Positions 19,902-59,523 of a DNA stretch of 60,276 nucleotides are shown here, one piece after another. Source of the DNA: Hydrolagus affinis. Taxonomy: Eukaryota. Numbering within the stretch: the first letter of the stretch is position 1; the number at the start of each line of letters is the position of its first letter. The position numbers and the translations under genes were made by a program. Below the pieces are notes generated by a model. It was not told the DNA's origin and did not search any database. It was given only the letters and a program-made list of their open reading frames with translations. Location of the stretch: NCBI GenBank assembly GCA_012026655.1, contig JAAILG010001905.1:1-60276 (forward strand), given 5' to 3'.

Positions 19902-19965
19902 TTTTTTAATTGCTCTCCTCCATCTTGATCTTTCTATGGTGTTGATGCATACAATATCTTCATCC
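19902..19965 (-). CDS. UNC13: UNC13-like exon with calmodulin-binding-type motif
   Basis: tttcag|G GAT GAA ... ATT AAA AAA|gtaaga = [21 protein letters not shown] (cf. RAHWIRAVTKV / KANWLRAFNKV); 64 nt. Confidence 0.8.
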
Positions 19966-22900: not shown

Positions 22901-25900
22901 AATATTGTACAGTATATAGAAAAAGCTAAGCAAACAGTTGCAAGAGACAAAAGATTCAGGGGAACCCTGTGTAGAGGGCGCTATACAAGCGGAAGTTGTT
23001 GTGTTGTTGTTAACTTGCAAAGCACGTGCTTGTGAGTTATACATACATAATTTCTTCTCTCCCAGAGGTCTTGTGGCTGGGTTCATTAGGCTCCAGATCC
23101 ATTTTCAGGTCATCTTGGGAACTGCAGCTGCCACTGGAACTAACACTTTGGCTACAACAGGTGCTTTGCTCTTGGGAATCCTGGTGGGAGCTGTACCAAG
23201 TCGAGCGAGATTCACATTCACTGTCCATGGTACAGCTGTGCAAGGCTTCATTCTCACTTCCTTCAGAGTAACTTGGCTGGGAATTCTCATGGCTCAGGGC
23301 GGCTGATGAGGTTTGCCAGCTTTCCACGGAGGCACTGCGTTAAACCGTAAGTACATTGTCCACGTCAAATTCGAGGCAACACAAAAGGTACACATTGCAA
23401 TAGCTTTTCTCCAGTAAGCTTCGCAAAACCATATGAAAACTACAACATTTATTCTTTCAAAGAGCTCGTTCCTTCCTCGTTCATTTTTGGGGGCATTCAG
23501 GCCTAACAGGACAACCGTGATGTCAGTTCCCACTTGGCATGACGATCACAATATTTTTCTTCAGCTTATCGCAGTCTGAAGAAAATATGAGACCCAAGAG
23601 TATCATGCAATGGGGACACAATTTGACTGGTGGCACTCTTGCTTTTTAAGAACGATTAGAAATAGTACAGGGTTTCGCTCAAACTTAGATTCTAATTCTT
23701 AGAATAACGAGAGTGATAGTATTTACCCCATTATATAATTGATTTACTAAAAAAATCCTATCTAAAATAACAAATAACCTATTTATACCACACAGTTAGC
23801 ATTAATTTGACAACTTAGACGGTGGCTTCAAGAATCAAATTGACTTGTCAGCTTGCAGTATAAACCCAGGTTTTTTATAAACCCACAGCGATTTTAGAAG
23901 AAATTCAAAACTTAAAAAAAGTGAGTTAATAAGTTCTCCACAGCCCTTAAGCAATTCAATGTTATTAAAGAGCTGGCTGGCAGAAGAGCTCTATAATAGA
24001 ATTAATAATTAACCAGCGTTAGGCACCGATGAGCGGAGGTCTCCTTATACCCAGCCAATGCGACTCATATGGGGAATATAAATGATGTTCCCTACACCAA
24101 ATTACTTTACCGCTGGAAGCTACAGGAATCACAAAACTCTTGTATAAATCTCGTGGCTTTTGGAAGTTTTAAGATTATAGCTCTGCACCTGTGACCCCTT
24201 TGTTTTTTGAAATATCAGAAACGCAACTATGCAGGAAAGGTTCCCTTCAACAGACTTGCTTATCGAGAAGTTCTGTTGTTGCCGATGCTCTGTGATGCTC
24301 TGTATTCCAGATGATCGGACTTTCTGGCACATTGGATGCTTTTCTGAGTTTACTCATTGCTTCACCTGAGCAAGTTGTCCAAGCGCCTTGGGACGTCTTC
24401 CCAATGTCAAAGGCGTTATCTATACAAATGTAATTTTGTATTGGTATTTTATATATGAAGGTGGTGAACGAGCGAATCTATTCATATCTGAGAAAAAAAA
24501 AGTTGCCGTCCTCCTCCATTTGGAATTTCAGCCACTGATATAGTCGTTTATGGTTAAGAAACTGTATTGCCTCATCTGTTACTGTTTTCTAAATTAATTA
24601 AATAAGTTTGGTTGGTTCATGAAGAATTGAATGCGAGAAAGAGAGAGAGAAAGAAAATCACATTACATTGTATAATTATATAAACTGGGGCTTTCTGAAA
24701 TGATACAGTCACATAGATCGAGTGTCTCTGAAGATTCCCATCAATTAAAACAACATGCACATTTTATAATGGAAGACAGTGGAAGAGCACATGGGAAGCT
24801 CGTGTTTGCTCACTGCAGCAAAATAATTCAAAGAAAAATAAGATTAGAGCATGAGAAAACATAATGATTCTCCAAAGATGGAGCACTGGAAAACATATTT
24901 TTGAAGTCTGGAGTCTGTGCAAATACAGATGATTGGGTTTTTTCACCTGTGAGCTGCATAGATCATTATTTTAATAATCCTTGGATTTGATTCAGCTTAC
25001 TGTCCCACAGTACTGTGTCAAATCCTACAGGGTTCAACAACAACAAATTACATTTATAGAGTGCCTTTCATGTTGGGAGGACGTCCCGAGGCGCTGAGCC
25101 ATTAGGTCGGTACCCGAGCATGGGTGGGGAGGGATGGGGTAGGTGCAGGGGGATGGAGAGTAGGAAAGGGGAGAGAGTTAGGAGGGCAGCAGAAGACACG
25201 GTCGAAGAGAAAGGTCTTGAGACTCTGCCCCCAACCTCTGGAACTCCATCCTGAAGTCCCTCCGCCTCATCCCCTCCCTAGCTTCCTTCAAGTCTAGCCT
25301 CAAGACCCTCCTCTTCAATAGACTCATAGGCAATTTCCTTCCCCACCTCCCCCCACCCCCCCACCCCCCACTGTCCTCAGTTCGGGTCTGAATCATTGAC
25401 TTTTCATCGCCTTGGGACATCCTCCTGACATGAAAGGCACTATACAAGTGTAATTGTGTTGTTGTTGTTTGTTGAAGGAGGAAATGGAGGAAGCGAAGCT
25501 AAGGGATTGCGGGATGGAGTTCCAGAGTGTGGGGGCGGAGAGGCAGGGGAGTGTTACAATAGAGATTGTTATGATCCTCGTGCACAATTTAATAATAATC
25601 CTTGTATTTGATATAGCGCTCCCCACATCCCATCAACGTCTCATCAAAGTACACTGCAAGGTACAGCAATCATGTACCTGCAGTGGTACACCATATACAA
25701 CTCCACTAATAGGCAGGATGTGAATAATCAATTAAGGAGAAAGGGAGCGTTCAAATGACGTCGTTGGCTGTGGCTTTGATCTTGCAGTGTATGGATGTCA
25801 TCTGAACTCTGCGGTGGATTTACTGCATTTCACCAAACCCTAATATTTATTTTGTATGACGCATCACACAAAGGTGTGACTTAATGGCACATATAAACTT

Positions 25901-28900: not shown

Positions 28901-31900
28901 GCAGAGCCTGACTCTGAGTGGTGGTGGGTGGGGGGGGGGAGGGAGGTTTCTTGGGGAAGGGAGGTGGGGATCAAGTGAGGGAGGTTGCCGTAAGCACGAT
29001 CGAAGAGAGAGGCGTTCTGGCGTGATTTGGAAAAAGCGGAGAAAGGGATTGAGGGAGAGTTCCACAGTTTGGGGGCGTAGTGGCTGAAAGCACGACCTCC
29101 GATGGTGGAGGCAGTAGGGAGGAGTCTCTTCCCTTCTCTCCCTCTCACACTCATTCCATGCCATTCCAAAAAATAATAAAGTTGGTCATTTCAATCCACA
29201 ACTGTTTGTGGGGCACTGTAATCCAGAATTGACTGCCGCGTTTCGCCCACAAATATACAGTCAATTCACCTTACCGCATCGTCTGTGAAGCGCTTTGAGA
29301 TATCTAGAAGATGTGAAAGCGCTATATCAAATGCAAGGATTATTATTATTATTATTAGGTGCCCAGGGGTGAAGCGATTTGAACACGAGTTTAAGAATCT
29401 TGACATCGAATGTTATCAAATTATCGTTTCAATATTACGGAGATAGTGCAGATTCTGGCATTAGAGTCATTTTTACAATTGTGCGATCTGTGTCGAAGTG
29501 ACAAAGTTGTTCGGAGTCTGGAATTCCTTTGAGCTTCAGTCCCCTCAAAATGGGAAAGACACATGATATGCGCAGACGTGAAATAGCCTCCACCAAAAAA
29601 AAATGCATCGAGTTCATTGTCCAAAAGTGCCTTTTCTGCTGCTACACAAACATTTACAGATGCTCTTAATTGCTAACTGTAATTTATTGCTCATTCTGCA
29701 CCCAATTCAGGAACTCTAATTGCAATACTCTCCTCATTATAATGTACTTTTGATTGGCTGCAAAATAACATGTTATGATGGGAGCATTCCATCAAAATAT
29801 AAAAAATATTGAAATTTTTGAAACCTCTTTGCTGTTATACAGAAATCAATATAAAGGAGATTTCAGTAAGAGTGTAAAAGAGGCAAACAATCATTTCACC
29901 CAAAAAAGCAATTACTTATTTACCAGCAATAATCATTCTCCTCAATGCATTACCTTCAAATTCTTGTGTGATTAAATATTTACCGATTGACGTAAATGGG
30001 AGACAATTTGCTCAGTTCAGACTGCTTTTAGTTATGGCTACCTTATGTCATGATAATTAAACACCTAGAAATCATGTAATCAGAAATCATTTTCAGTTTA
30101 ACTTTCATTCAACACAAACAGGCAGCAGGGAAATAGAACTAGTATCATTCATACATTTTCTGAAAGATAAACAATGTTACCTGAAGGTTGAGTAGTGTGA
30201 GCAGAATACGCAAGCTCTTTATACAATTCTGTATAAAGTTACTGGGTGGGTGAAAGAAATAATATTAATAATAATAATCCTTGCATTTGATATAGCACCC
30301 CTTTTCACCCCTTCTAGACATCTCAAATGTTTCACAGAATATACTGTAAAGTGAATTGACTGTATATTTGTGGGCTAAATGCGGCAGCCAATTGCACACA
30401 GCAGTGTCCCAAACAGTCGTGGATTGAAATGACAAATTTATGATTTTTTTTTGAGGGATTATTATTAAGAAAGGGACAAAAGCAAGGAATTTGAAGAAAT
30501 GTGGAATTTCTAAAGGAGCCCCTTGATACTGACAACACCAAATAAGGGGAAATAAATTGTGTAGGGTGATGCATAATTGCTTACCATTACCAATTGCACA
30601 CCACTGCAATTTACACCAATTCAATGTTCACTGTTCAACCGTTACCCGTCTTAAAATGCAGTGATTAGTAAAAGAAAATCAAACCAGCCTGAGGCTTAAA
30701 TGCTGTACATGATACTGAAAACTTCAATAATTTCGTGCAGATCTGCACGAAACATTGACTGACCATGGCTTTCAACAACACAGTCGCCTCTGATCTTCAC
30801 TCTCTCTACAGTCATAATCAAACCAAAAAAAAAGTGACATCTTGGACACGTAATGAACCATCTACCTTAATTCTTTCTTTGGTGAGAGTTTGCATTGGGT
30901 TTGGGGGCGCAGATCACCCGCTCCGGAACCAGACTTCAAATGCCCATTTCCTCTCTTTATTGACGCATTATTCGGATCGCTTCGGTAATCGCTATCTACG
31001 TCCTCACTGGTGCTATCTGTGGGAGCTGTGATGAAACAGAAATGTGAAGGTGAAACGATTGCGTTAACCAAATATTGGAATGATAATCCTTGCATTTAAT
31101 ATTCCATCGTTCCCATCGGGACAAGGTCTCAAAGCGCCTCACTGGATTCAATGAGAAGTGCAGTGGCTGTATGCGAATTTAAACATTGTGTCACAAATTG
31201 CCATAAAGCGAAGTTAAATATATGTCTTTAGGAGGAGAGAATTCAATAACGATTTCAAGCAAAAAGCCCTTTGGACTTTGTGGGCTGTATTCAGACCCAC
31301 TGATCTTTGGCTTCAAGTGACAAAATTCTTCAAAAGAACTATATTCCACCAATGGAACCGAACAGAAATAACATATAAACTACAAAAGCAAAATGCTGCA
31401 TGACAAAATACCGTACAATACTGCAATGCCCCCTGGAGGCTTTATGAAGAACTTCTGGTATGATATGATAGCATAAAATCATTAATGCTCACTCACCCAA
31501 AGTAAGCAACTGATCTGCACTCTCACCTTCCCATTGTAGGCTTTTATGTGGTACCACCCTGAGGCTTTTTACACCATTGAGGGTATTGCTTCCATGCATT
31601 ATTTTACATTAACATGATTTTTGTGCCACAAGAACATGTCTTTAAGGTAAGTATTGCCTAATCCTACAAAGTTTGCCAGCGTTAATGATCGACAGGTTCC
31701 CTCAGTATTTACATAATATATATTTTATATATAAAAATGGTCCATCATTATATCAAACTCTGTGAAGGTTTAGTTCGAGTTGAAAAAGAGGTGTGAGAGT
31801 GAGATGCGTTTTACTTTATGGTTAGTTATTAACTACATACTTACAACTCTGAGAGTCCAGTAAAAACAACTGGTTCTGGACAGCACCATTTTTAGAACAG

Positions 31901-34900
31901 ATAACCTTGTCATTTTTTTCCTGGAAAGTGAAAAGCAAATTCATTGTAATACCTTCACGCAAGATAGAAGAGCACCAACGGTTAACAAAACAGTAAAGTC
32001 TCAAAGGAATCGAATGAAGTATTGACTTTGCAAAAACAACAACAAATGTTGTGTAGTGCCTTTCAGTCAGGAGGACATCCCAAGGAGCTGGACAGTTGGG
32101 GATTTGGCCAAAAAAGGGGAGTAAAGTTTGAAACCAACAAAGGTAACAAAGTAAATTAACCTTATTCTGGTCACTGATGCGTCCGCAACATGATCATTGT
32201 GTCTCAGATGAAGGGATCGCGAACATTCCCTTGACCAACATACCTGTTCAATTTGAATGTTTATATCCTTAAGGCGCTTTATTAAGTTTTGAGCTTCATC
32301 CTCTGGGATTTCTAAGAAGTAAAACAAGAGAGTCACATTATTTTCTCTTGTAAAACAGTCACATAACAAAAGGTGCTTGGTAGAAATGTTATTACGTTTA
32401 ACAGTGGAAGCGAACAGAATTGATATCAATAATAGAAATCTTCAATACCCTTCTTTTAATGGATTATATAATTCAGCCACCCAAGATCTTGGCAAGATTC
32501 ACAAAAGTTGATTAGAATTATTGATAACCAATTTTTAACCCTTAGAATGGTGGTAAGTCTACAGTGAATCACATCTCGGCTTAAACAACATAGCTCTACG
32601 TATTGATAAATCCAATATTAAAGGAAATATCTCCTCCACAAACTATTCCCAGCTTAAGTTTCCTCATCATTGTACTTGTTTTTCCTGGGCTCGCAGTTCC
32701 TACTCTCACCTCCAGCCCCATCTCCAGCGCTCACTTGCCTCCCTAATCCCATAGGATGTCATCGTTCTGTGAGAAACTTGGCTTCAGTTACGACAGGCCT
32801 TTACATTGCATTCAGCTAATTTTCTCACCTTCTGTCGAACCAACTACCATTCTTGGTCCCCATATTCAACCTCTCCCTTTCCTCAGAAACGCTCCCTTAC
32901 TCATTTCAAAACTTCTTAAAGCAGGTATCTTTTCAACTAACTACCTCCCCAGCTCTAAATGTTTTTGCCAAGGCATCAGCAACACCATTGGTGAGCTATA
33001 TGCTCACCCCTCACCATTCGCTTTTTAAGACATGCCAATCCTTATTTGTATTTGTGATTAATGCTTGATATTGCTTTTTAGAATCATCAAATGGTGTAAT
33101 TTTTCAATTGACCCTGTGTTTAATGTGGTCAAGGTGCTTTTTGTGGCTTGGTTAAAAGCCATCAAAGCCTGTTTCCAGTATTGGGTGGATGTTGCTTTGT
33201 ACAGAGATGTATGCAAAGCAGATAGATGGGCAGATGACTCAGGAACGGTCAGAGGAATACAATATCTAATGAAAGATCATGTAAGTTTAGCTAAAATCTG
33301 TTGAGCCACTAGATAAGCAAATATCAACAGAACCAAAGAACATCAGCGCAAATGTCCCACAGCAGAGTAGAAGATTAATCGTGAGAGACAGGAAATCCAT
33401 TTTGATTGGATCACAAAGCATCATTAATCTCTCTAATGACTACTATTCCACATCTCACGGCAAGTTATTTGGACACATTCATCAAGCTTGTTACAATGAG
33501 TACTTCACCAAGAATGTTATTATTTTGATTACTGGCAGATATTTTTAATTGCTTGACTCTGTTTGATGAGAAGCCAATGCTTCAAGCATTAGCTCAATTT
33601 AAAACTAGAATATCTTTAAAAGAACATTTATTCACTGCAAAATATCTTTTACTCCTCTCTATCTCTTCAAAGTCATCGTGTGTTGCAGAAAAATGTTCTA
33701 TAAATAGCTTTATCTAGCATGAATTTGAGATGAAGTATTCATCAATAAATTGGAAACTAGAACATTATTTTAAACTTCTCTCTTTGCTTACACAAAGATT
33801 ATACTGCTTAAAGTAAATTCACTATGCCTCCAGAATAACAACAAAATTGGGAATCCCAAATTAAGCGTACAGCTCCAAAATTATTTTCCTTTGTGTAGGT
33901 GAATATGCATAATATAATCCTTCCATTGGATATTTTGCCTTATCACATCTTCGAGATATCCCAAAGCGCTTCACAAGAAAATACTGTAAAGTGGAGTGAC
34001 TGTGTATGTTGTGCGCGGATGGATGTGCGTGTATGTGAATCGAGCCCTGCCCAATTGAGAGCATGTGAAAAGCTCTGCTAACTCTGGCCAAATGCCTGTC
34101 AGTTTTCAACATTATTAGAAAAAGATGGTCACATTAAATTAGCCTCTTAAATGTTCTTGGCCAGTGCGTTGACCTTTCAAGAGACTACATTCATCAGAGA
34201 TTGGATCAATTTGCACCATTCCACAAGATGGTTTGCCAAACAGGTTCACGGTTGATTTCTTCTGCTTTTCACGTCCCAAACGCAAATGAAAACTCGGCCC
34301 AAAAAGAATCTGCCCTTTTTCAAGACTGAAGCCATCTGTATATATGTATTATTGAGTATCATTGTAGGTGTTAGGCATTTGAGAATCAAGCCATTTCTTA
34401 TATCGTCCTGTAGCTCAGTGGTTGGAGCACTCGCCTTACAAGAGTGAGACCTGTGTTTCGAATCCAGGCAGGTCAGGGCTAAACCTTGGGTAGGTTTCCT
34501 TACTCCACACGCCTAATAATAATCCATCCAAAAAAACCCTACAATAAATTGTTCATTTCAATCCATGACTTTTTAATGGGACACTGCTGTGCGCAATTGG
34601 CTGCCGTGTTTTACCCACAAATATACAGTTAATTCACTTTACAGTACATTCTGTGAAGCGCTTTGAGCATCTAGAAAATGTGAAAAGCACTGTATTAAAT
34701 GGAAGGATTATTATCATATTATCATTAGTAGCTTTTCACATACCAAACATAAATCAAACTCATTCAGCAGAATAAATCTCAAACAGTATATTATTTGATT
34801 GAAAACAAACCTTACCGGCAGGTAATTCAAAGTATATATCTAATAGGATTTTGTGAAGTGTTGGATTTTCTGCTCCACAAATCTCATCGTTTTTCACAAG

Positions 34901-37900
34901 AACTTCAGAATTCAAAATCCACCAATCCCCAAGTCCTTCCTAAAAATAAGTATATTATTATATAACGTTAACACTGAATTTGCTGTACTTAAGTGCCCTT
35001 TTGATTTGACAAATTCTGCTGGAAAAGGCATTGCAAAAAAAACAAAACTGCTTTATAAGTTTTAACACAATAGTTAAAAGTGTTAACTCAGTGTGTGGCA
35101 AGTTTCACAGACGATAACATCTCCTTACATGAAATTTATACTACATATTGGAGTGCATTTCAAAACATATTTATACCATGAATTGGATTCTTATGTCTGA
35201 ATTGCAAGGGACAACTTTAAAGAAAGTGTTTTAGAGATGAACAAAGAACCATGTGTCACTAAATTACACAGTAATTTAAGATGAAACTCTATTTGATACC
35301 TTTTCTCTGACAAATTAGTGTGTAAGACACAAAAAACTGGTCTTGTGGATATAAACAAAAAAGATTAAGAAACAAAAACACTCCGTGACGTTTACCTCAG
35401 TTGAGTAGTTGATTGTTCTAAGGGGAATCCATGCAGTTCCTAGTAGTGTGTCCCATATTAAGCCTTTGTCCCAGACTTCGACAACAAGACCCTTGTCTAA
35501 GTCGCTTATCTCACTGAACAAGAAAGAGAAATACAGCATATATGAAATCACACATTTTAAAAATTAAAGTCCAAATAACACATCAATTTATGCTTGAAAT
35601 GACCGGCAAACTTTCAAAACATCACACTTTCCTTTCGCCACGCACCCTCACAGACCCTAACATCCAAATCTATGATCAAAGGCGCGTTCTTCTGCAAATG
35701 AAACTAATTTTGGGAGATAATCAGAGATTCAGCATTCAAGTTGTTCGAGCCAGGACACAAAGACTGTGCCACTGAAAACATGAAAACTTACAGGACAGAA
35801 AGAAGCCATTTGGCTCATCGGTGTTGGCTCTCTGAAACAACAACAACAAAATTGCACTTATATAGCGCCTTTCACGTCAGGAAGACGTCCCAAAGCGCTG
35901 AAAGAGCTATCATATAATCCAATACGCCAGCCTTTTCCTCACACCCATTCACATTTCCACAATGATCTCTGAAAGCAATACCAATAATGAAGCTTTGCAC
36001 ACGGCTCCGCCAGACTGTTGCCCTTTGTGTCCGGACGTTTGAACGCAGTTGTTTAACCAGATTTGTCAGAAGGTTGAAGTCACGAGAAGTTTGTTTGCTG
36101 ATCCTCCCATACAACTACCAGCCACCAAGATCAGTTCACGGTATAAGTATCCTCCTTAGCTTTGCTCCACTCCACATTAGTATGTGATTGTTCGACTGGT
36201 TGTAAAGGTCCCAAGTGACGTAAATTTAAGCGGTTCTAACCTGATAGGCATTGCTCCCCAGCACAGAATTGCCCTTAATCCACCACTGAGTTGGTAATTT
36301 AATTCACAGTCTAAAGATCATTGTTGTAAGAAAGGAGAGATTTACACGGGCACAGCTGTGAATGCTCTGAGATTGATAGTTACATCACGTAATTGAGAGG
36401 GAGAGAGAGAGAGTGAGAGAGAGAGCGCACAGAGGAAGCTTTGCTGTGTGTCTTGGTCAAGATGCAATTGATGTCTAAAAGGCAAAGAGTGTTCTCTTTC
36501 CCAGCTTGGAAAATAAATAATTGATAACATTTTTGAGAACATACTTCTACTGTATTATAACACAGAAAGGCAATCAAAATGGCTTGGGATGATAATGGTG
36601 TTCCAATAGAAGAACTCTTATACACACAATAATAATCCTTGCATTTGATATAGCACCTTGTCACATCATCGAGGCATCTCAAAGCGCGTCACCGAATAAA
36701 TAAACTGTCAAGTGAATTGACTGTATATTTTTGTGGGCGAAACAAATATATACCAAACCTGGGAAGAGGTGACTTGTGGCTGAAACTGTGGTGTCATATC
36801 GATTACCCAATGTGTCAAAATTAAGTGATAAAGGTGTATCGAATGCAAGGGCTCTTTATTTTCTGCGGTAATAAAGCACAATGATATGCTTTTAAAAAAA
36901 ACATACAACATGTAATCTTGTTCCCACTGAGGTTCATTTCCTCGTCTTGCCACGGTGGTGCTCGTCAGTTTTTGAACCTTTAGAGTTACGTACGTGTTAA
37001 ACTTGTCTGGAAAATAATAAGAATGTTATACACACAGGATATTGTAAATTATCATTCCCAAGGTAAAAGGAGACAGAATGCTACTGTATAGAAGTTTGCA
37101 GCTGCCTGTGGCATTGGAAAGCAACAACAACAATTTGGATTTATATGGATTTATATAGCGTCCTCCATGCCGGACGACGTCTCAGAGCTTAAAGCAGCAT
37201 TCGGAATATAATAATAATAATGATAATAATCCTTGCATTTGATATAGCGCTTTTCACGTCTTTGAGACGTCTCAAAGCGCTGCACAAAATATACTGTAAA
37301 GTTAATTGACCATATATTTGTGGGCGAAACGCATCAGCCAATTGCGCATAGCAGTGTCCCACAAACAGTCGTGGATTGTTGCATTGTTGCATGTTGTGTT
37401 ATATACTCATTATATATGTGACCTCTGATATACAGAAAAAACAGAAACCACTGCAAATGGTCAGAGAGACCCGGTCGTCAGCTACCTGAGCACATGTACT
37501 ATAGCACACAGGAATAGTGTTAAGCACAAACTAGATTTACAATTTAGGAATCTAAACCAACAATAGAGTACATCTTTTGTCAACAACGCTTTGAAATGCA
37601 TTGTTCCTCATCTGAGAGTTGAACTTGTGCATTATTTAGTGCCTGAGCCGCCTATTTCTGCTTCACTTCATCTTGGCTCATAGATTCTTTTCAATGACTT
37701 CCGTATAGAGTGGAGTCTGTTATAAGGTGGTAATACGGGTGGGAGAGAAGGACGTCATATTATATCCATCAGCGCATTAACGACCAACTAGAACAACAAC
37801 AACAAAATTACATCAGGGTGTGATCGCTGGTCAGTATTTTTGTCGGCTCCATCTATGCTTCAGACATGTCGAAAGGTTTGCAAAAAGGAGAATTTATCAC

Positions 37901-40900: not shown

Positions 40901-43759
40901 CGCATTCAGTTTTTGACCAAAGTCAGACACTTGGGGCTGCCCATCTTTGGAAGGTTTTGTTTAGGTTACTCTCATTTGCAATAGTTTTTGCTACAATTTT
41001 TACTTTGCATAGATTTGAATGGTGTGAACTGCTAGCTTGCGTATTGCATAGCTCCACCTCATGCTCTCGTTGATTATGAACGGGCTGTAAATCAGACTGT
41101 GTTTTTTACTGTAAACCTGTCAGAACAAATCATCGTTGCCATTCTCTGTAGTTAAGGAAAGCTATTTACACATTACCCATTACAGTTCATAAATATTTCC
41201 TTAAAAGTAATAATGGGTCAAGTCATTGCATCAGTAGCTTCCTATGTATCTCAGTAATATCTACTTGAATCCACCAAAATATTAATATGGTCCAAACGTG
41301 GAGGTGTAACAGTGATATTTCCTTTAGAAGTGACAGGCACCTTGGTTTCTTTACCCTCCCAAGTTTTGTATTTTACATGTTTTGTGTTTTCGCCATTCTA
41401 TATTCTTAGACATCAGCTAAGAATTTACAACAGAGAACTTGATACAGCACTCTATCAAATGCACTTATTATTACAGTACAAAAGTGCACAATCAGAATAA
41501 ACTAAATTACACGAGGGAGCTTTTATCTATCATCCTCAACGGTATTTGTTTGGTATATGTAGTTTGTAAACTTTGTTTTTTGATGCAGAATGTGTGACGT
41601 GCTCATTTCTGATAGGATCATTCAATGAAAAATAATAATAATCATTTGAGGATTATTATGATTGCATTTGATATAGCGCCTTATCACATCATTGAGACAT
41701 CTGAAAACACTTCACAGAATACTGTAGGTTGTAAAATGAATTGCCTGTATTTTGTGGATGAAATGTAAGCATTAACCTAAAGGTCAGACAAGGCAATCAA
41801 CTTTTTGAAATTTTGCACTATGTCGCAAATGTGTCAGGATGGGTGTTTCCTAAGAACAACAGTTCTGAGCAAAAGTTTCCAACAGTTATTTCCTATTGTC
41901 GCAATCCTAACTGAAGGGGCAAAGAGATTTTAAAAAAAACAAGAAACAGGAATAATGCATGGTTTCAGTTTGCGAATTTAACCTTTCAGATGGACCCTTT
42001 CGGTCATTTTGATTTAATAAAATGTTAATAATACGAAATTGGAAAGGCCATTGATCCCGGTTATGTAATCTCCTCGGGCCAATTCACTGAGGAGCAAGTC
42101 CACACACACAAACAGTAATTTTACGTCAGGATGCAGATTGCAATTACAATCTAATTGACTGCTTACACAACATGATGTCATTCAAGCCCCCTGGCAAGAT
42201 TACGGTGGAAAGGATAAATAAGGGGAAGAAAATTCTCGTTAAATAACGAAGAAAGGAGCTAGAGGTGAAAAAAAATGTTTTGACATCACGGGTGTTAAAA
42301 CACAGAGTACAAAATAAGGAGTAACATCCGTGAAAATAATAATAATCATAATCCTTGGAACTGATATCGTGATATTGGAACTCGACGGGATTTTACTGTG
42401 AAGTTACTGTACATTTTTAAAGCAAACGTGGCAGCCAATTTGTGAATAGCAATGTCCCGCAAACAGCTGTGAAGCGAGCAACCAATTTTTAACAGGAGTG
42501 GGTGAGGGTAGGATTGCCAGTCAGGAGACGGGGAGAAAGAAACTCCCTTCTCTTTTCTAATAGTGCCGCAGGGTGTATCAACATCCACCTGAAAGGGGCT
42601 CAAACATCTCATCCAAAGGATGTTATGTCCGACAGATCTCACAACAACACTGATGGTGGGTTGTTGGGCTGGCTGGCTGGCTGGTGGGGGGGACTGCAGA
42701 TATGTTATGGCACCTGGAATAATTAGGTGGAGAAGTCTGTGTGATTTACAGAGGTAAGCAATTCGTTATTTGGTGAAGTTTAGCTGTAGCTCAGCTGCTG
42801 TCACCCTTGGCCCTGGTGAGAAAATTCCTATCACATCTCCACCCAAATCAATCTCTTTGTCCAGTACTGTGGACAGACAGACACCTATAAACGGGTGGGG
42901 CACTCATTATAAACCTCTCCCTCCCATCTCCCAGGTGGAGGAAACTCCCTATTAATGGAGCAGGGTTAAATAATACAATCGATAGAAGCAACAGCAATAA
43001 TATATATGTAACTGTGTATAGATATATATATATTTAAAAAACACACGATGTGGGAGGGAGGGGGAGGGAGAGAAGATAAAGGAAGTTCTGTCCTGCAAAT
43101 CTGTCTGGGACTAGGGAGTGAGTTGAATCCCAACCCTGACACTTGAGCTATTGTTCAGAGGCAGGGAGCATCACTTTAAAGAGACAGTGGATAGAGACAG
43201 ACAGATTAGATAGACTACCTTCTCTGCTAAGAAACTCAGAGGGACTGTGAAAGACCCATTATTTAAGCTTATATATAATATATAGGTATATATATATATA
43301 TTTAAACACTAAAGCATTCCCACAAGCACCTGCCCATCACTCTCTCTTATATAATAAGCACAAGAAACACTTTTCACAAAAGCATTGACCAGGACTGACT
43401 AAACTAAATCAGGAGAGGACCTTGGGTGGTGGGGAGGTAAACAATTCTGAGTTTAACTCCAAAAAGTTTTTTTAAAAACAAGTACAACACGGGAAACCTG
43501 TCTCACACATGACTTACCAAAGCAACCAGAGTTAATTTGCATTCTTTTTAACGTGGAACTGGAAAGATACAGATCTTTTCACATTAAAACAAAATTGCTT
43601 TGTTTAAAAAAAAGATGGAATTGTATTTCCAGAGAGTTTAGACTCTCCCTCATTCCCCCCCCACTCTCTCTCCCCTCTAAATAAAAGACAACTGTAACTA
43701 CTCAAAAGTTTGGAAGTATTGAAAGTGAACTATTTACCTTTTGCACAGAGCAGTGACAT
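19902..43759 (-). CDS. UNC13: Munc13/UNC13-family protein (C2A-bearing, UNC13B-like but divergent), 5' spliced CDS; 3' part not found in window
   Basis: Exons of 22/30/100/118/124/68/76/160/288/(63)/64 nt join with compatible phases: [36 protein letters not shown]...[12 protein letters not shown]...EICG...[12 protein letters not shown]...DSDYRSD...[10 protein letters not shown]. These are the diagnostic Munc13-1/ubMunc13-2 N-terminal motifs. Confidence 0.9.
20677..20739 (-). CDS. UNC13: Putative UNC13-like cassette exon (63 nt, symmetric phase 2)
   Basis: Pyrimidine tract, then gtag|A ATG GCG GAA ... AAA CG|gtaaga = [20 protein letters not shown]. The frame is compatible but I see no recognisable homology. 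Confidence 0.45.
20831..20965 (-). mobile_element. SINE 3' fragment
   Basis: aataatccttgcatttgac...gacgtctcaaagcac... Confidence 0.8.
23047..23334 (-). CDS. UNC13: UNC13-like exon 9 (Ser/acidic-rich linker)
   Basis: gcag|T GCC TCC GTG ... ATT AT|gtatgt; 288 nt open, phase 2 to 2; Ser/Glu-rich with an HSC motif as in the Munc13 linker. Confidence 0.75.
25035..25550. mobile_element. Cluster of LINE2 3' fragments in alternating orientation (- 25035-25220, + 25221-25473, - 25474-25550)
   Basis: (aac)n tail at the left, (gtt)n tail at 25455-25473, and LWNS motifs in both orientations. Confidence 0.82.
26358..26427. repeat. Compound (TA)n microsatellite
   Basis: tatagatatatatactgtatatatatagatatatatactgtatata... 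Confidence 0.9.
28829..29125 (-). mobile_element. LINE2 3' fragment (second subfamily)
   Basis: The reverse strand encodes [17 protein letters not shown]...LFDRAY, the typical L2 ORF2 end. Confidence 0.87.
29170..29357 (+). mobile_element. SINE 3' portion
   Basis: ttggtcatttcaatccacaactgtttgtggg ... atcaaatgcaagg(att)n. Confidence 0.87.
30265..30470 (-). mobile_element. SINE 3' portion
   Basis: Reverse family consensus. Confidence 0.87.
30866..31025 (-). CDS. UNC13: UNC13-like exon 8 (DSDYRS motif)
   Basis: cacag|CT CCC ACA GAT ... TTA AG|gtagat = [26 protein letters not shown]..., matching Munc13 DSAVDDRDSDYRSE; 160 nt. Confidence 0.87.
31845..31920 (-). CDS. UNC13: UNC13-like exon 7 (linker)
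   Basis: tttccag|GAA AAA ... AGT T|gtaagt = [25 protein letters not shown]. Phase 0 to 1 bridges exons 6 and 8. Confidence 0.75.
32244..32311 (-). CDS. UNC13: UNC13-like exon 6 (helical extension after C2A)
   Basis: cttag|AA ATC CCA GAG GAT GAA GCT ... GAA CAG|gtatgt = [23 protein letters not shown] (cf. DIPEEEARYW); 68 nt. Confidence 0.9.
33912..34020 (-). mobile_element. SINE 3' fragment
   Basis: ccttatcacatcttcgagatatcccaaagcgcttcac... Confidence 0.7.
34405..34724 (+). mobile_element. Full-length tRNA-headed SINE
   Basis: gtcctgtagctcagtggttggagcactcgcc ... ttcgaatccaggcagg ... ggattattat. Confidence 0.9.
34816..34939 (-). CDS. UNC13: UNC13-like exon 5 (C2A C-terminal part)
   Basis: ttttag|GAA GGA ... 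GCC G|gtaagg = [41 protein letters not shown]; 124 nt. Confidence 0.94.
35396..35513 (-). CDS. UNC13: UNC13-like exon 4 (C2A)
   Basis: ttcag|T GAG ATA ... ACT GAG|gtaaac = [39 protein letters not shown]; 118 nt. Confidence 0.96.
35837..35905 (-). mobile_element. LINE2 3' terminus (similar stubs near 15885, 22965, 24380, 32037, 37122, 39520, 52430, 54550)
   Basis: (aac)n aaattgcacttatatagcgcctttcacgtcaggaagacgtcccaaagcgctg. Confidence 0.85.
36395..36425. repeat. (GA)n microsatellite
   Basis: gagagggagagagagagagtgagagagagag. Confidence 0.85.
36628..36743 (-). mobile_element. SINE 3' fragment
   Basis: aataatccttgcatttgatatagcacc...gtgggcgaaac. Confidence 0.82.
36907..37006 (-). CDS. UNC13: UNC13-like exon 3 (C2A)
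   Basis: ttttccag|AC AAG TTT AAC ... ATG TT|gtatgt = [34 protein letters not shown]; 100 nt. Confidence 0.95.
37208..37378 (-). mobile_element. SINE 3' half
   Basis: (aat)n ccttgcatttgatatagcgcttttcacgtc ... cacaaacagtcgtggattg. Confidence 0.88.
39335..39364 (-). CDS. UNC13: UNC13-like exon 2
   Basis: ttttccag|TT AAA AGA GCA AAG CTG AAT GGT CCA TCT G|gtaaga = [10 protein letters not shown](D); 30 nt. Confidence 0.9.
39781..40240 (-). mobile_element. LINE2 3' fragment (about 460 bp)
   Basis: The reverse strand encodes ...[15 protein letters not shown]...[14 protein letters not shown]; (aac)n tail. Confidence 0.9.
41650..41770 (-). mobile_element. SINE 3' fragment
   Basis: ttgcatttgatatagcgccttatcacatcattgagacatc... 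Confidence 0.75.
43738..43759 (-). CDS. UNC13: UNC13-like coding exon 1
   Basis: ATG TCA CTG CTC TGT GCA AAA G|gtaaat = MSLLCAK(V), the typical Munc13 start MSLLC; 22 nt, phase 1. Confidence 0.9.
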
Positions 43760-48787: not shown

Positions 48788-49038
48788 CAAGGGTAAAACC
48801 TTGGGCAAGTTTCCTTACTCCACATGCTTGATAATAATCCCTCAAGAAAAAAACCCAATAATAATTTGGTCAGTCGATCCATAGTTGCTTGTGGGACACT
48901 GCTGTATGCAAATGGCTGCCACGTTTCGCCCACAAATATACAGTCAGTTCACTTTACAGTATATTCTGTGAAGTGCTTTGAGATGTCCAGAAGATGTGAA
49001 AAGCGGTTTATCAAATGCAAGGATTATTATTATTATTA
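48788..49038 (+). mobile_element. SINE, 5'-truncated
   Basis: aaaaccttgggcaagtttccttactcc ... tatcaaatgcaaggattattatt. Confidence 0.88.
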
Positions 49039-49617
49039 ACTCCTTATATTGCAATGCTGAAAGCATCCAAATACATAGTTCCTGGCCTCATGTGCTGAAA
49101 AATAAGGAAGTATTTTCTTTTAAAAACAAAGCTAATTAACTCTGCTGTACCTCATACAACTACTTAGCCTGGTATTTGGTCAGGAAGTGCTGGAAAAATA
49201 AGGAAGTGAAAAGAAGAAAAAATTATGAACTTTGGGAATATTTTTTTCCCAAAACGACAAAAATCCACCAGGCTTCCTGCTACTGATTACTTATCAGTGA
49301 CCACAGCCAAATGTGTGTCTGAGTGTTTCGGAAGGACTGAATCAAGTTCAACTGTGATGAACAGCTTCCAATTTTCGACCGCATTTTCCTCCACTGGGAT
49401 ATACAACGCCATTCACATAGTTAAAAGTCTCAAAGTGCTTTTACAGAGGTGCAAAGCGACATTAGCTCATGCAAGGTGGGATTTAGAAAGGGTGGGAGGG
49501 CCAAGGCGCAATCAAAGAGATAAGTTTTTAAGAAAGTTTTTGAAGGTTGAAAGCAAGGGTGAAAAGTGGAATGATTTAGGGATAGGACTCCAGAGAGTGA
49601 AGGCAAAGTGGCTGAAT

Positions 49618-49885
49618 GATAACAATAATCGTTGCATTGAATATAGCGCTTTTCACAACTTCTAGACGTCTCAAAGCGCTTCACAGAATATACTGTAAAG
49701 TGTATTGACTGCGTAGCTTGTGGGTGAATCTCAGCTGCCAATTGCACGCAGCAGTGTTCCACAAACAGTTGTGGATTGAGATGACCAATTAATTTTTTAA
49801 ATAATATATTGCGGGATTCTTATCAGACATGTGGAGTAAGGAAACTTGCCCAAGGTTTCGCCCTACCTGGAATCGAACCCAGGAT
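49618..49885 (-). mobile_element. SINE, 5'-truncated, abutting an L2 fragment (about 49440-49617)
   Basis: Same family consensus in reverse orientation. Confidence 0.85.
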
Positions 49886-52800: not shown

Positions 52801-53369
52801 CAATTGAAAATGCCCGAGAACAAATTTGCATCTTGGTCACAAGCTTTTAAGAGCAGTGTTGGATTGTTGCTGGTTTCCATTCTCTCCCTCAGGGAATGAA
52901 TACATTCAATATGGAAACAAATTTCAAATTGGCAAGTGAAGTTCCAAAGGGGAACCACTTAAACTTAGGGACCAGAACTGCATTATTGTTGCCTACAAAT
53001 TTTAACGCAACCATTCACATGCACCACTTGTTGTTATAAGAGCAGCATGCACTAGTTACTTAATCACATAAGAGTGTTTTTAGTATATAAATTTCTACAA
53101 TACATGCATTGCACAATCATAAATAGTATCACAAGTCATGACGTTTGCAAAAAAAAAAAACTAAATTTTAATGTAACCTGGACCTACACAAGTTTAGCTA
53201 CGAGTACCTTCACTAGTAAAGAATAAAAGTAACTCTAAGAGGCCAGATTAAATACTATAACCATCAACGATTTAAATCATGCACAAAAATTTCAACCCAA
53301 TGGCACTCGAAATGGAAAAACCCTTTGGCGCACAAAAAACCCAAATGCATTCAGTTTGGTTTAAAGGGG

Positions 53370-53375
53370 TTTATT
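53370..53375 (-). terminator. Candidate polyadenylation signal (AATAAA) for PDIA3; alternatives at 53610-53615 and 52667-52676
   Basis: tttatt on the plus strand about 250 nt past the stop, followed on the minus strand by T/GT-rich sequence. Which site is used cannot be determined from sequence. Confidence 0.45.
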
Positions 53376-53626
53376 GTTCAAAATGTACAAAAACATTCAC
53401 CAGTACAAAATAAGACCAAAACAAAACCTGAATATTTCTGCCCCTTTGCGATTCAGTAACGTGTCAATAGTGCATGTTAAAAATTTGATACAGAATGGGA
53501 CTAGAATGGCCAATTATGGATTTCTCTTAGAAAGTGACTACACCACCACCACCAAGCCTGGTTCCAATTACTTCTTGCATATCCCAATAGTTTCCACGGA
53601 TGAGGTGCGTTTATTGAGTGAGCAAT

Positions 53627-53743
53627 TTACAACTCTTCCTTCTTTCCCTTCTTCTTTTTCGATTTCTTGTCCAACTCCACAGTGGGTGGGTATTTAGCTT
53701 CTTTCTTCAGGTAACCAAGTAAGTCATTTATCTCACGCCCTCC
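53627..53743 (-). CDS. PDIA3: PDIA3 last coding exon (Lys-rich tail, KEEL ER-retrieval signal, stop)
   Basis: aag|GGA GGG CGT GAG ... GAA GAG TTG TAA; [38 protein letters not shown]. Confidence 0.95.
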   Translation of the reverse strand, partial: GGREINDLLGYLKKEAKYPPTVELDKKSKKKKGKKEEL

Positions 53744-56700
53744 CTTGGATTAAAAACAGAACTATAGTCAGTGCAAAGTCTACCTTCAAGAGAATTTGTT
53801 CCAAGCAGCATTAACCTACACTGGATACTCACTATGTCTAATATTCCATCCCCAGCTATTTTTATTTCAACATTACAGCAAACTCACTTGTTAAACAAAC
53901 CCACTAATGTGGTCAAAATTCCTCTCTGTTTGTTGCTGAAATTAGTATTTCCACTGGACAGAAGTGATAGAGAAATTGCACAGGGATGGGTTTTCAACAG
54001 ACCAGGCTTGCACTTCGATGGATAAATCCATCGATAAGACATGGAAAGCGCTGTATAAATCTAAGGATTATTATATTATTATTATTATTAAATGCATTGA
54101 CCTTAAAGATGCTATAAAACGTTTTCATTACATTTAGAGAATGACCCTCTGGGTGATATTTTTTAACCCTCAAAACAAAGTGGTGAACCAAAACTACTGC
54201 CATGTTATGATACAAATAATAGTTGCATTACACCATTATATTAAAAGAAACATTAACTAGAAGAGGAAATTCTATAAGAAAGCTGAACTGAAACTTTCAA
54301 GCGAGAATGAAAATCTCAGTTCCACCCTTGCTACTCTTTTGACATTATAGAGATGATACAGAAGTGGGAGTCATATGCAGATCCTACATACACTAGTACT
54401 GTACATGAAACAAGTTATTTGTTTTTGTGGATGCAAGACGTACCTCATATTTCTTTGGACTTTGCTTTTTGCCCATTGGGGAAAAATAAATTGTCGGGAA
54501 CCTAAAAGTAAAACAAAAATTGCATTAAGTATTTCAGAAAGAAATAAAACACCAACTTGCATTTATCTAGCGGGGCAGCATCCCAGGAGCGCTTGGAAAC
54601 ACTTGTAAAATTTAAGATTGAAGCATTCCAAGTTGGGTTTATTTTGTTCTTACCCTCGGACTTCATACGGTGAAGGCACATCATTGGCTGTCGCATCCAT
54701 CTTAGCAATCACAATGTTGGGATCATCTGCCAACTGTTAAGATAGATGGTGTTAAAAATGTATATTTTTTTAAAAAAAATTAAAGATTCATTTTGCTCAA
54801 TAGCTGGGTTTGGGTGCAGAACACATTCCAACCTTCTCTCCAAGCTCTTTATATTTGGGCTCCAAACTCTTGCAATGGCCACACCAGGGAGCGTAGAATT
54901 CAATCAGCACATCCTTGGTGTCGTCGTTCACAATTTCATCAAAGTTTTCAGCTACCAGAACCTACAAGACGGAAACACTTGTGAAAAAGAAGCAAGCAAA
55001 TGCAGCAGGAGTTCCATTTGTGTAAGAACATTTCCATAACTAATTGATCATATAATCCCTTGTAAGCGCAGACTTTGTTGACAGGGTTTCGGAAGACAAA
55101 TAGCCAATGAAGTTTCCTTGGAACTAGAGTATTGTTCTTCAGTGCACCGTAAGGCCTGGAAAAGTTCTGTCTCATTTCAAGATGTACAACAACTCCTAAC
55201 CCCTTTTGACCCAAAATCTATTTTGGAGCTTCTCTGTATCGCCAGTAAACATTTAATGGAATTCAGGATTGGATCGAGACAGGTTAAACAATTTAGAAAA
55301 ATGAGTTGCTGACCTAGCAGCTGTGGAAAGTGATACAATACAAATTTACACTTATATAATAACTTCTTTCACGTTAGCAGGACGTCCCCAGGTGCCTAAT
55401 AGTGTTGGCTTAGCGCTTGAGTGAAGGTGGGAGCCAGGGGAAGGGAGTGGGGGCCCCCCCAAGCATAACAGTTGTATCTCTAGGCTGACAATTTATATGG
55501 ACACTATCCTGAGGGTTAATACAAAAGGTTTTGGAATGCTAATCATATTGCTTACAGCACAGAACAAAAGCTAAATGCAAGCATTATCAATAGGGTTTCA
55601 CACATGTATTGTGGTGAGAGGAAGAGAAATGTAGGACAAGGACACTATTAAAGAGGTATTCTAAAACAAGGAACCTACCTTCACAGGCCCGTCATTGTTT
55701 TCTGGAATGGGCTCAGATTTCAGGTAGCGTTTCAGCTTGCCATCAAAATAATCCTGAAGGAAAACTTCCAGGGCTTTGCCATTGCGGCTGAAGGGATAAA
55801 AATAAATTAGATTTGTGCCACCAAATTTGTGCCATTGTTCACAAATTTTCTGCTCTTTACCAAAAGCTTTCATAATGCTCCGACATTGCCTGTTCAACCA
55901 TAGGTGAGCAATTGCAGTCAAGTGCAATTTTGTCCTCCCTCCATACATCTCCAGTAAATTGGTGGGTAGCGATCAGAAGATATTCCCCCCCCACCCCCAA
56001 CTTATGCAAGAGGTTAGGTCAATTTTAAGGGGCTTTGTTTCACACCTGCTACCTCAGCAGATCAGGCATTGAGGACTAGACATTCCTGATCTGTGTGGCT
56101 CAGCCATTCACTGAGTGAACTTGCTGAGCTCTAAGGAAATCCCACACGCAATTTTGACCTCTGTTCTTACAGTAGACCTTCTGATTTACTACAGCACAGT
56201 AGTCATACAGCAAGCTTTTCACATGCTTCGGTAACAAAAATGAGAAATTGTGCATTTCACTGGTGTTATTTCAGCTTCGAAGTTTACTATAGTGCACCCC
56301 ACAGACTCCATTGCATTTAAATCATTTTCTAAAACCATTTGCTGTCCTGTCCCACTTGGTCACAGCTAAAGCTTCCACTGATAAAGCCACTTTAACACAG
56401 TGAGGTGCAAAGGGGGCTCTTCATTTCCTGCTACAAGATCCCGCAGAATACTTACGTGAACTCCTCATGCATCACGTATTTATCCCCCTTGGTGGTTTTG
56501 ATCGCCACCACAGGAACCTCACCAGAGGCAGTGTCCAAGCCGAATTCTGAGATATCGTGGCTGAAGGATTTGTGGTTGGCAACGGCAAAGTTCAACTTCC
56601 GACCAGCATCCAGGAATTTCTTGGCAATGAGCATAACCCTGCATAATTGGAAACACGGAAGAGAGAGTTCAATAACCAAGCCTAAAACACAAGAAGCATG

Positions 56701-59523
56701 GACAAATAAAAGACGTAGTCGTGGAGGCACATGGCTACAAGAGGAAGGCAAAAACTCAGCAATAAAGTTTTTTTTTTAAAAAAAGTCAAAAAATACCATC
56801 ACTACATTCTACAGAAAAATCTGATGAACTTTGTGATGTTTCAACATAAGGCATGATATGTATAGATTGTCTATTATTATACCAACCATCCTGTACTTTA
56901 AGTCATATATTCAGTTTGGTGTTCAATTATGGGCATTTGTAGTGTTGTGCAGAAACCAGATTGGGTAATATAATCGGTAGAAAGATATTTATCCCATTAC
57001 TTCCTGCCACAGTTCTGCCAATTAATTTAGTTATTGTATGGGGAATAAAACAAACTTCATTAGGTCTCTCATTTGATCAAATCAGCAGGTTGAAACACAC
57101 TGACAAATAAATACCTATTTCTCCAGTAGTTGGAACCCTTCGGATTTTTCTCATAGTCTACATCGTAATAAGCCACGAGCATATCTTTGTTCTTCATCTG
57201 ATCTTTGTTATCCTCTGTCATGTGGGGGCAGATACCAAAGCTGGAATTGAATGAAAAAAAATAATTGAGCTTCAAAACTCTGTTCCTGCAACATCAGTTT
57301 TAATTTTACAAAATTAAAAGTAACTATTTGGGGGATTTTCTTTGGCTGGCAGTTGATGCAGAAGCTACAAATCTCTCTTAACACAAGTCGCAACTCAACA
57401 CACAAGAACTACTTTTGATCAATGCCATAAATAATCAGTGCCCATGCCCAGAGAAATAAACCATATCAACAACAACAAAATTACACTTGCATAGCACCTT
57501 TCACGTCAGGAGGAGGTCCCACGGCGCCGGACAGTCAATGTTTCAGACCCGAGATGGGATCGGGCACGGGGAGGGTGGAGGAAAGGGGAGGATTTGGGGT
57601 GACCGATGGGACCATCAAAGTGGAGGGTCTTGAAGGAGGCCAGGGAGGGGGCGAAATGGAAGGACTCCCAGGATAGAATTCCAGAGGATAGGGGCGTAGT
57701 GGTTCAAGGTTTGTCTGCCAATGGTGGGGCAGGTGGGTCGGGGTACATGGAGCAGGCCAGAGGGTGGACACGTTGGTAGGGAAAAATATAATGCTAGAAA
57801 TGAGTTATAGAATCTGGACATACATGTTTTCCTGAATAAATGTTTTGAGTTTTGCATTGGTGAACTTCCCTTCCGTGTACTTCACAATGCTGTCCTCAAA
57901 CTTGTTTGCCAGTTTTGGAGATCGGAACAAGAGAACAGCCCTGTCAAAAAAAAAAAGAGAGTATTTTACAGAGGGTTTTAGTGAAGACAAATCCAGTCAC
58001 GTTCTTAAAACAATCCATACATTTCGCTTCTGATCACGGAATTAAAGGAGTTACTGAAATCGAGGAATATTCTGAACTAACGTTTGCTGATGAAGATAAA
58101 AGAGCACAGGAATGAGAAAACTTGACCCATCCATTCACTCCCAGCGCTTTGTAACAAGATGCTGACTTCTGCAGAGTCAAATAATGGGGTAATGAATCAC
58201 AATGTCATTGCTTGGGTGCAACACAACCGCTAGAATGCCAGGAAGCCCAGTACAGAAGTGACAAAACAAATGTGATACAGAATACCGACTTCCAAGCCTA
58301 AAATTATCACTTAGAAGCCTAAACAAAAAGATATAACCTAGAAATATTTGTGTGGAATCACATGGCCGTCATAAAAACCATGCACCTCAGTGGGATAATC
58401 AGGCTGCTCTTTGGTTCTACGTCAATGCAGTGAGAGCTAATAGCTTCATAGGAGAGAAGAGGAATGATGGGACGTTTACTGTTAAAAGACAACTGGCAAT
58501 CAGACCCACGGAATAAAATCCTTAGTCATAAACAGCCACCCAGCTTTTCAATGAGCAGGTACGAATAAGTGATTTGGTACCTACTCATCATCAATTTCAT
58601 ACTGCTGAAGCAAGTCTTTTGAATTGGTTTGCCCAAATCGATAGTTGTCCCTCTGTGCATTTGCTGTTTTAGTGAATTCTGCTTGGGAAGCACTGCCGGA
58701 ATCCGCAAAGAAACCTGCACAACAGAAATGACAGATTAATATTTTAAAAATTAGCCTTTGCTAATTCAACATCAAAGACAGATTTCCACAGCACTATGTG
58801 TTTGGCAACGAGACATCATTCCTTCCCAGTAAAATGTTAAATAGCAATCCCTCTCCCACATCCCTCAAATCTGCGGGTATGTCCAGTTTATTGTAGGTTT
58901 TAAATCCCAGCTGAAACATTGTAGTTAATGGGAACAAACCAAACGCAATCATCAACAAGTTTTCTAACCAATACAAGACTATTTAGTATTAAGGTAACCC
59001 CATGATTTTCATTTAATTGGCAAAACGGATACTGTCCCAAATTGCAATGTGCATTAAACCGATTGATTAGGCAACAACTCTCACCAACAACAGAGCCATC
59101 GATATCACTAATAAAGGCTTCCAATTCTTCGGCGGTTTTAATTTCTACAGAGCTAGGTCCTGCCTGTTTCTTGAGAGTGGTAACAATTCCATCTATGCAG
59201 AGAAAACACATGGATGAGGGTTACTGCTGTGTTCTAAAGGTGTGCAAATCAACAGACACGAGTACCCTGCAATGTGCAAGGATATCTTGGATCATGCCAT
59301 TGCCAGGATTGCAGCCATCACTGACCGAATAACCTTTTGAAGCAGTGCGAGAATCTAATATGTGATGAATAGTTGAATGGTTATTTTCATCAAAGCAGCG
59401 TTTACCTGCTGTTCTGGGTCCGTCATAATCACCAGATTCTTCACCATCGCGGAATATCTTCAAGGTTGGGTAACCACTGACCCCAAACTTGTTGCATGTT
59501 TCTGTATTCGCAGTGCAGTCAAC
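53627..59523 (-). CDS. PDIA3: Protein disulfide-isomerase A3 (ERp57), spliced CDS exons 3-13; 5' end (exons 1-2) outside window
   Basis: Eleven GT-AG exons join in frame to give [29 protein letters not shown] ... [22 protein letters not shown] ... KKGKKEEL*, matching vertebrate ERp57 throughout. Exon sizes are 118/108/130/117/126/183/109/129/80/58/117. Confidence 0.96.
54444..54501 (-). CDS. PDIA3: PDIA3 exon 12
   Basis: tag|G TTC CCG ... TAT GAG|gtacgt; [19 protein letters not shown]; 58 nt. Confidence 0.96.
54654..54733 (-). CDS. PDIA3: PDIA3 exon 11
   Basis: cag|TTG GCA ... CGA GG|gtaaga; [27 protein letters not shown]; 80 nt. Confidence 0.96.
54833..54961 (-). CDS. PDIA3: PDIA3 exon 10 (a' thioredoxin active site WCGHC)
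   Basis: tag|GTT CTG ... GAG AAG|gttgga; [43 protein letters not shown]; 129 nt. Confidence 0.97.
55335..55460 (-). mobile_element. LINE2 3' terminus
   Basis: aatttacacttatat...tttcacgttagcaggacgtcccc. Confidence 0.7.
55679..55787 (-). CDS. PDIA3: PDIA3 exon 9
   Basis: cag|C CGC AAT ... GTG AAG|gtaggt; [36 protein letters not shown]; 109 nt. Confidence 0.96.
56456..56638 (-). CDS. PDIA3: PDIA3 exon 8
   Basis: cag|G GTT ATG ... TTC AC|gtaagt; [61 protein letters not shown]; 183 nt. Confidence 0.96.
57115..57240 (-). CDS. PDIA3: PDIA3 exon 7 (b' domain)
   Basis: cag|C TTT GGT ... AAT AG|gtattt; [42 protein letters not shown]; 126 nt. Confidence 0.96.
57466..57770 (-). mobile_element. LINE2 3' fragment in PDIA3 intron 6
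   Basis: (aac)n aaattacacttgcatagcacctttcacgtcaggagg...; the reverse strand reads [17 protein letters not shown]. Confidence 0.87.
57824..57940 (-). CDS. PDIA3: PDIA3 exon 6
   Basis: cag|G GCT GTT ... AAC AT|gtatgt; [39 protein letters not shown]; 117 nt. Confidence 0.94.
58585..58714 (-). CDS. PDIA3: PDIA3 exon 5 (b domain)
   Basis: cag|GT TTC ... GAT GA|gtaggt; [44 protein letters not shown]; 130 nt. Confidence 0.93.
59085..59192 (-). CDS. PDIA3: PDIA3 exon 4
   Basis: tag|AT GGA ... GTT G|gtgaga; [36 protein letters not shown]; 108 nt. Confidence 0.95.
59406..59523 (-). CDS. PDIA3: PDIA3 exon 3 (a domain, C-terminal part)
   Basis: cag|GTT GAC TGC ... GCA G|gtaaa; [39 protein letters not shown]; 118 nt. 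Confidence 0.95.

Follow-up and report, generated by a model that had tools for sequence, protein, structure and literature searches.

A probable ancestral, C2A-bearing alternative N-terminus of UNC13C downstream of PDIA3 in the chimaera Hydrolagus affinis

Ten exons that lie downstream of PDIA3 in the chimaera Hydrolagus affinis are very probably a real, intact and ancestral alternative N-terminus of UNC13C. This module encodes a C2A domain, a linker and the start of a calmodulin (CaM) site, and we infer that it is joined to the UNC13C core in this species; in sharks, rays and birds, gene models or assembled contigs show the joined C2A form.

The stretch of DNA that we analysed (hereafter, the window; 60,276 nt, 38.6% GC, contig JAAILG010001905.1) holds two genes, both on the minus strand. 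The neighbour was identified by comparing one of its exons with PDB structures: PDIA3 ranked top (E 3e-33), above PDI and PDIA4. The original prediction had placed an UNC13 gene about 9.9 kb downstream of PDIA3 on the same strand, and the measured gap from the PDIA3 stop (53627) to the UNC13 ATG (43759) is 9,868 nt; the motifs it cited for the UNC13 exons are all present on the minus strand where it had put them. The features are as follows:

53627..59523, minus strand: 3' part of PDIA3 (ERp57), whose 5' exons lie past the window end; not part of UNC13C
43738..43759, minus strand: exon 1, 22 nt, coding, ATG at 43759
39335..39364, minus strand: exon 2, 30 nt, C2A
36907..37006, minus strand: exon 3, 100 nt, C2A; bears N30K and K32T
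35396..35513, minus strand: exon 4, 118 nt, C2A; E52, E63, W65 and D72 retained
34816..34939, minus strand: exon 5, 124 nt, end of C2A; E128 retained
32244..32311, minus strand: exon 6, 68 nt, post-C2A helix (RIM-binding in Munc13-1); E137 retained
31845..31920, minus strand: exon 7, 76 nt, linker
30866..31025, minus strand: exon 8, 160 nt, linker
23047..23334, minus strand: exon 9, 288 nt, Ser-rich linker; skippable in frame
19902..19965, minus strand: exon 10, 64 nt, positions 1-7 of the CaM-site helix; phase-0 donor
4558..4646, minus strand: possible alternative terminal exon, matching the tails of two short Callorhinchus milii RefSeq models

The ten exons of the module (43759 to 19902, minus strand) splice to 1,050 nt, or 350 codons without a stop, with AG at all nine acceptors and GT at all ten donors. 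The product runs from C2A (1-131) through the helix after C2A and a Ser-rich linker to the first seven positions of the CaM-site helix. Exons 1 to 5, at 22, 30, 100, 118 and 124 nt, have what we take to be the sizes of the corresponding UNC13A and UNC13B exons. Exon 4 by itself matches the C2A domain of rat Munc13-1 (PDB 2CJT; E 5e-14), some isoform models of C. milii and sharks lack exon 9, and exon 10 ends in a phase-0 donor equivalent to the one from which sharks and birds splice to the shared pre-C1 exon. Neither the core nor the large Munc13-3 exon was found when sought within the window, and no further part of the gene turned up in the remaining 19.9 kb. A linker exon of ~42 codons that shark, skate, reedfish and coelacanth models have between exons 8 and 9 was sought at 23334-30866 (minus strand) and not found, nor is it in C. 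milii models; it was possibly lost in holocephalans.

Identity and phylogeny agree on the class to which the module belongs. Over its full length, the spliced product shares 82% identity with a C. milii protein, and its C2A domain is 92% identical to that of C. milii; exon 4 taken alone is 92% identical to C. milii and 77-82% identical to its counterparts in sharks and rays (11 matches among 136 candidates). These values point to a holocephalan other than C. milii. The N-terminus had originally been judged closest to UNC13B; that holds between the two named classes (72% for UNC13B vs 65% for UNC13A, ray UNC13A also being at 65%), but not overall, where the UNC13C-linked class is nearer (92%). 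In a C2A tree of 60 rows chosen by the analyst, which contained no chondrichthyan UNC13B and no cyclostome, the window is sister to C. milii (99/99) within a 25-row clade (100/99) that stands apart from A, B and the invertebrates; UNC13A forms a separate clade (98/87) that excludes the window, and B and C are weakly sisters (88/65). The unnamed A and B rows of this tree were labelled by eye, and the labels agreed with the nearest named sequence in 21/21 cases. Forcing the window together with UNC13B, the constraint that the AU test covered, cost 71.9 lnL and was rejected (p-AU 5e-96). By tree, AU test and identity, then, the module groups with N-terminal modules that are joined to UNC13C cores. 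The ESM Atlas clusters returned only the label ‘UNC13 A/B-like C2’, Chordata. The top C2A match in a search of proteins of 451-2,000 aa, P0380 (Fundulus), was set aside because it is of B type, with part of its C2A present twice.

These results bear directly on whether the locus is simply this genome's true UNC13A or UNC13B evolving fast, an outcome that the original prediction had named as the one to overturn its proposal and that we consider extremely improbable. RefSeq does call the shark orthologues ‘unc-13 homolog B-like’ or ‘A-like’, and the shark and ray orthologues, which are full-length from C2A through C2C, are mostly named ‘B-like’; however, grouping with UNC13B is rejected, the UNC13A clade is separate, sharks and rays have UNC13A as separate proteins whose C2A is 94-95% identical to that of mammalian A, and the core to which the module is joined is C-type.

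The assignment of the core comes from orthologues, the core lying outside the window. A search with the core of the Heptranchias C2A form found, among the best 120 of 3,583 matches, that species' own canonical UNC13C (2,218 aa, 100% identity) and, after it, UNC13C proteins at 85-89% from coelacanth, gar, reedfish, amphibians, birds and a marsupial. The phylogeny of the C1-C2B-MUN-C2C region that had been proposed as a check was built from 34 analyst-chosen rows (LG+G4; 35 were picked and one was dropped for a fragmented alignment), without chondrichthyan UNC13B or cyclostome sequences: eight C2A-bearing forms and ten canonical UNC13C proteins make up one clade (100/100), and A (100/100) and B (99/98) stand apart from it. 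By the same tree, mammalian UNC13C (Munc13-3) is the same gene as its module-bearing relatives. The cores of the C2A form and of canonical UNC13C were compared in 13 same-species pairs and are 99-100% identical in 11 of them; the two exceptions, C. milii (95%) and emu (91%), come from UniProt models whose junctions are irregular. In all 11 clean pairs, one of which (reedfish) is represented by a linker-plus-CaM form without an annotated C2A, the two forms enter the same pre-C1 exon. Three full-length C2A forms were also recovered from Logan contigs of 5,241-5,940 nt, a size that fits spliced mRNA and suggests that these are not gene predictions. Canonical UNC13C of ~2,200 aa is present in sharks and C. 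milii as well, and there the large Munc13-3 exon shares the core; UniProt models that run C2A into part of the large exon place the C2A module before it.

The proposal that UNC13C has kept a C2A/CaM module is thus supported by both trees, by the AU test against UNC13B and by the same-species isoform pairs. The wording ‘long form’ did not survive, as the module takes the place of the canonical large exon as an alternative beginning and does not lengthen the same protein. The competing proposal, a fourth UNC13 ohnologue or a local duplicate adjoining UNC13C and lost in mammals, could draw on the roughly equal distance of its C2A from A and B, on its clade of its own and on the annotation of the module as a separate gene in many species. 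Yet every core found attached to the module is the canonical UNC13C core of the same species, letter for letter, and no species among the proteins compared has a second C-like core; we therefore find a fourth ohnologue unsupported and regard it as very unlikely.

We propose that UNC13C has two starts, like UNC13B. An upstream promoter near the 3' end of PDIA3 would drive exons 1-10, which would splice past the large Munc13-3 exon into the shared pre-C1 exon to yield a C2A-CaM-C1-C2B-MUN-C2C protein of about 1,450-1,630 aa; a second, downstream promoter at the large exon would yield the canonical ~2,200-aa form. The C2A form would act as a vesicle-priming factor like Munc13-1 or ubMunc13-2, recruited and activated by the RIM zinc finger, as the retained E52, E128, E137 and following helix suggest; tuning by Ca/calmodulin is conceivable and uncertain, motif position 8 being changed. 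The module would be ancestral to jawed vertebrates and fast-evolving, with the RIM-binding face lost in tetrapods and the module itself apparently lost in mammals. UNC13B (ubMunc13-2 and bMunc13-2) offers the parallel: like UNC13C, it has two N-termini on a common core, one a C2A-plus-CaM form and the other a large-exon form (PMC5379939). The UNC13C module differs in that its core is C-type, its C2A evolves much faster and its CaM exon ends after motif position 7. Furthermore, part of the UNC13C large exon has a match in a B-type protein (E 3e-6, in a coiled coil), and the large-exon forms of UNC13B and UNC13C are described as having a coiled coil in common (PMC5379939). Together with the layout described in that source, the match suggests that the two-start arrangement probably predates the split of B and C. 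The large Munc13-3 exon has been reported to resemble L1 ORF1p (bioRxiv 10.1101/2024.04.25.591049); with the coiled coil common to a B-type protein, domestication of such an L1-ORF1-like sequence would likewise predate that split.

A different reading of the same exons is that holocephalans express the UNC13C-derived module solely as a short, stand-alone C2A-linker-CaM protein of 260-380 aa with an alternative last exon, a decoy that would tie up RIM, the C2A domains of other Munc13 proteins or calmodulin. In the short cluster of C. milii, all four members stop after exon 8 or exon 10, the module is annotated as a separate short gene in many species, and a tail exon is recognisable at 4558-4646 (minus strand), where two frames match (68% and 83%) and both acceptors are present. 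However, the second of these frames has a stop in the window, and the tails vary between models and between species; in sharks, rays, reedfish and birds, the full-length join is made from this very donor, the phase-0 one at the end of exon 10; and short and long forms can coexist. Split annotation is also to be expected across very long introns. We consider an exclusively stand-alone form unlikely and favour an N-terminus of UNC13C that may in addition have short ends. RefSeq holds only short stand-alone models for C. milii, the joined models being UniProt predictions with irregular junctions. Read-through of the exon 9 donor (23047, minus strand) gives the short ending of two Logan skate-like proteins, and in one RNA run seven molecules end at 23006; intronic polyadenylation past this donor is possible. 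In three RNA runs, all from one sample carrying a different organism code, reads fell in 4/4 exon-holding and 1/5 exon-free bins of the nine low-repeat bins, at a depth below 2, a weak hint of transcription; mapping was swamped by repeats, and no exon-exon joint of the module is among the 15 read joints listed, beyond which there are 16,930 more.

The residues known to mediate binding by Munc13-1 were mapped from Lu 2006 (PMC1472246) and Camacho 2017 (PMC5436228) onto an alignment of 51 rows, 15 of them A or B. Numbering is gapless with respect to Munc13-1, whose C2A structures (PDB 2CJS/2CJT) match the C. milii orthologue without gaps over residues 1-152 (E 4e-62). The window retains Y23, S33, E52, E63, W65, I70, D72, E128 and E137, and is changed at N30K, V31L, K32T, L131A, Y140N and W141L; E128, E137, K32, Y23, W65 and D72 are each retained in all A and B rows (15/15). 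On the RIM face, E128, E137 and the helix that follows are present in the sequence of the window, as is E52, which sits at the RIM interface (PMC12597829). Among the C rows from chimaeras, sharks, rays, ray-finned fishes and coelacanth, E128 is found in 20/20 and E137 in 19/20; the lungfish row has lost E128 and retains E137, and E128, E137 and the helix are absent from 11/11 tetrapod rows. The tetrapod rows mostly keep the other face, with K32 in 10/11 and Y23, W65 and D72 in 11/11. The window has four of the five residues of this homodimer face (K32, Y23, E63, W65 and D72); K32, reported as central to the homodimer (PMC1472246, PMC5436228), is T. This substitution occurs in the window alone among the 51 rows: C. 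milii has K, and sharks and rays have K or R in 11/11. K32T may impair the homodimer switch in this species, and K32T with N30K is either a natural variant with weakened dimers or an error in the sequence. Divergence of the C-type C2A is high throughout (ray vs gull 62%, caecilian vs gull 57%, overall 57-66% identity) compared with 88-95% for the A and B C2A domains over comparable spans, so the C-type evolves far faster.

The CaM site of Munc13 proteins has been described as a hydrophobic 1-5-8-10-26 pattern (PMC9282427). In the window, W1 and I5 are encoded by exon 10, the donor falls after position 7 and the frame stays open for six codons of the intron before it reaches a stop; position 8 is therefore expected from the shared exon. 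In sharks, the next exon supplies A and L at positions 8 and 10; V8 is present in A and B and retained in reedfish X4 and coelacanth. Judged from these residues alone, the chimaera form is likely to be recruited by RIM; the chances that it is weakly self-inhibited are evenly balanced, and perhaps, with much the same chance, it is sensitive to calmodulin.

The original prediction had confined retention of the module to cartilaginous fish, and this proved too narrow: RefSeq joins the C-type C2A to the core in birds, in UNC13C isoforms of ~1,400 aa. A C-type C2A is also present in mormyrids, eel, halosaur, coelacanth, lungfish, caecilian, salamanders, frog, turtles and skink, and in a sequence that matches the reedfish linker; the named teleosts that have it are only osteoglossomorphs and elopomorphs. 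The module is often annotated as a separate ‘UNC13A/B-like’ gene. In 5/5 species that have both records, namely Latimeria, Ascaphus, Rhinatrema, Protopterus and Pleurodeles, the separate-gene module and UNC13C are on contigs of identical size, and in Ascaphus their locus tags are adjacent. Among the best 120 of 1,804 proteins of 451-2,000 aa, 42 were C-type (11 chondrichthyan and 31 bird) and none of these was mammalian, the seven mammalian rows all being UNC13A; among the best 150 of 755 representatives, 32 were C-type, one of which, at 44%, is probably misclassed; 12 of the 32 are named, and none of those 12 is mammalian. The module thus appears to have been lost in mammals, on negative evidence that is weak, as a diverged or short remnant could rank lower, and that is backed by the mouse literature, where the large exon is reported in all UNC13C variants (bioRxiv 10.1101/2024.04.25.591049).

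A tentative reading, to which we give slightly less than an even chance, is that ancestral UNC13C made a RIM-regulated C2A-plus-CaM Munc13 that then decayed stepwise: fishes would keep both faces, tetrapods would have dropped the RIM face and kept the dimer face, and mammals would have lost the module. Birds would then express a RIM-blind, self-inhibiting Munc13-3 that resembles the engineered E128K/E137K mutant and could poison Munc13-1 by heterodimerising, and the absence of C2A from Munc13-3 would be a mammalian peculiarity.

Munc13-3 is described as having no C2A or an unrelated N-terminus (PMC5436228, PMC9282427, PMC5379939), and the Munc13 field regards it as C2A-less. RefSeq and UniProt entries named ‘unc-13 homolog C isoform X’, ‘B-like’ or ‘A-like’ in sharks, rays and birds already encode the isoform, often misnamed or split into two genes. 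We found no description of a C2A-bearing UNC13C in the open-licence full-text literature, a scope beyond which most subscription journals lie; the nearest mention is of UNC13C isoforms without the L1-ORF1-like large exon in three non-mammalian species (bioRxiv 10.1101/2024.04.25.591049), in a source whose Fig. S6 or datasets may show the C2A exons. The isoform is thus present in automated annotation and apparently undescribed in the literature. Should a third C2A-bearing Munc13 exist in most lineages of jawed vertebrates, the priming toolkit would have shrunk, not grown, toward mammals, and studies of bird, frog and shark synapses would have to reckon with an isoform so far unrecognised. Natural variants separate the two functions of C2A, the RIM face being lost in birds and K32 in this chimaera, and the homodimer/RIM switch could therefore be tested without designed mutants. 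The module likewise accounts for a group of database genes that have been misnamed ‘UNC13A/B-like’. The finding is at the level of isoforms and evolution and brings no new mechanism.

Elsewhere in the window, 34404-34476 (plus strand) gives a weak tRNA-like Rfam match (31.8 bits) at the margin of a very high-copy repeat, probably the head of a tRNA-derived SINE; the window contains many copies of this bordering repeat. A short AT-rich tandem repeat (period 23, 2.7 copies) lies at 26365-26426.
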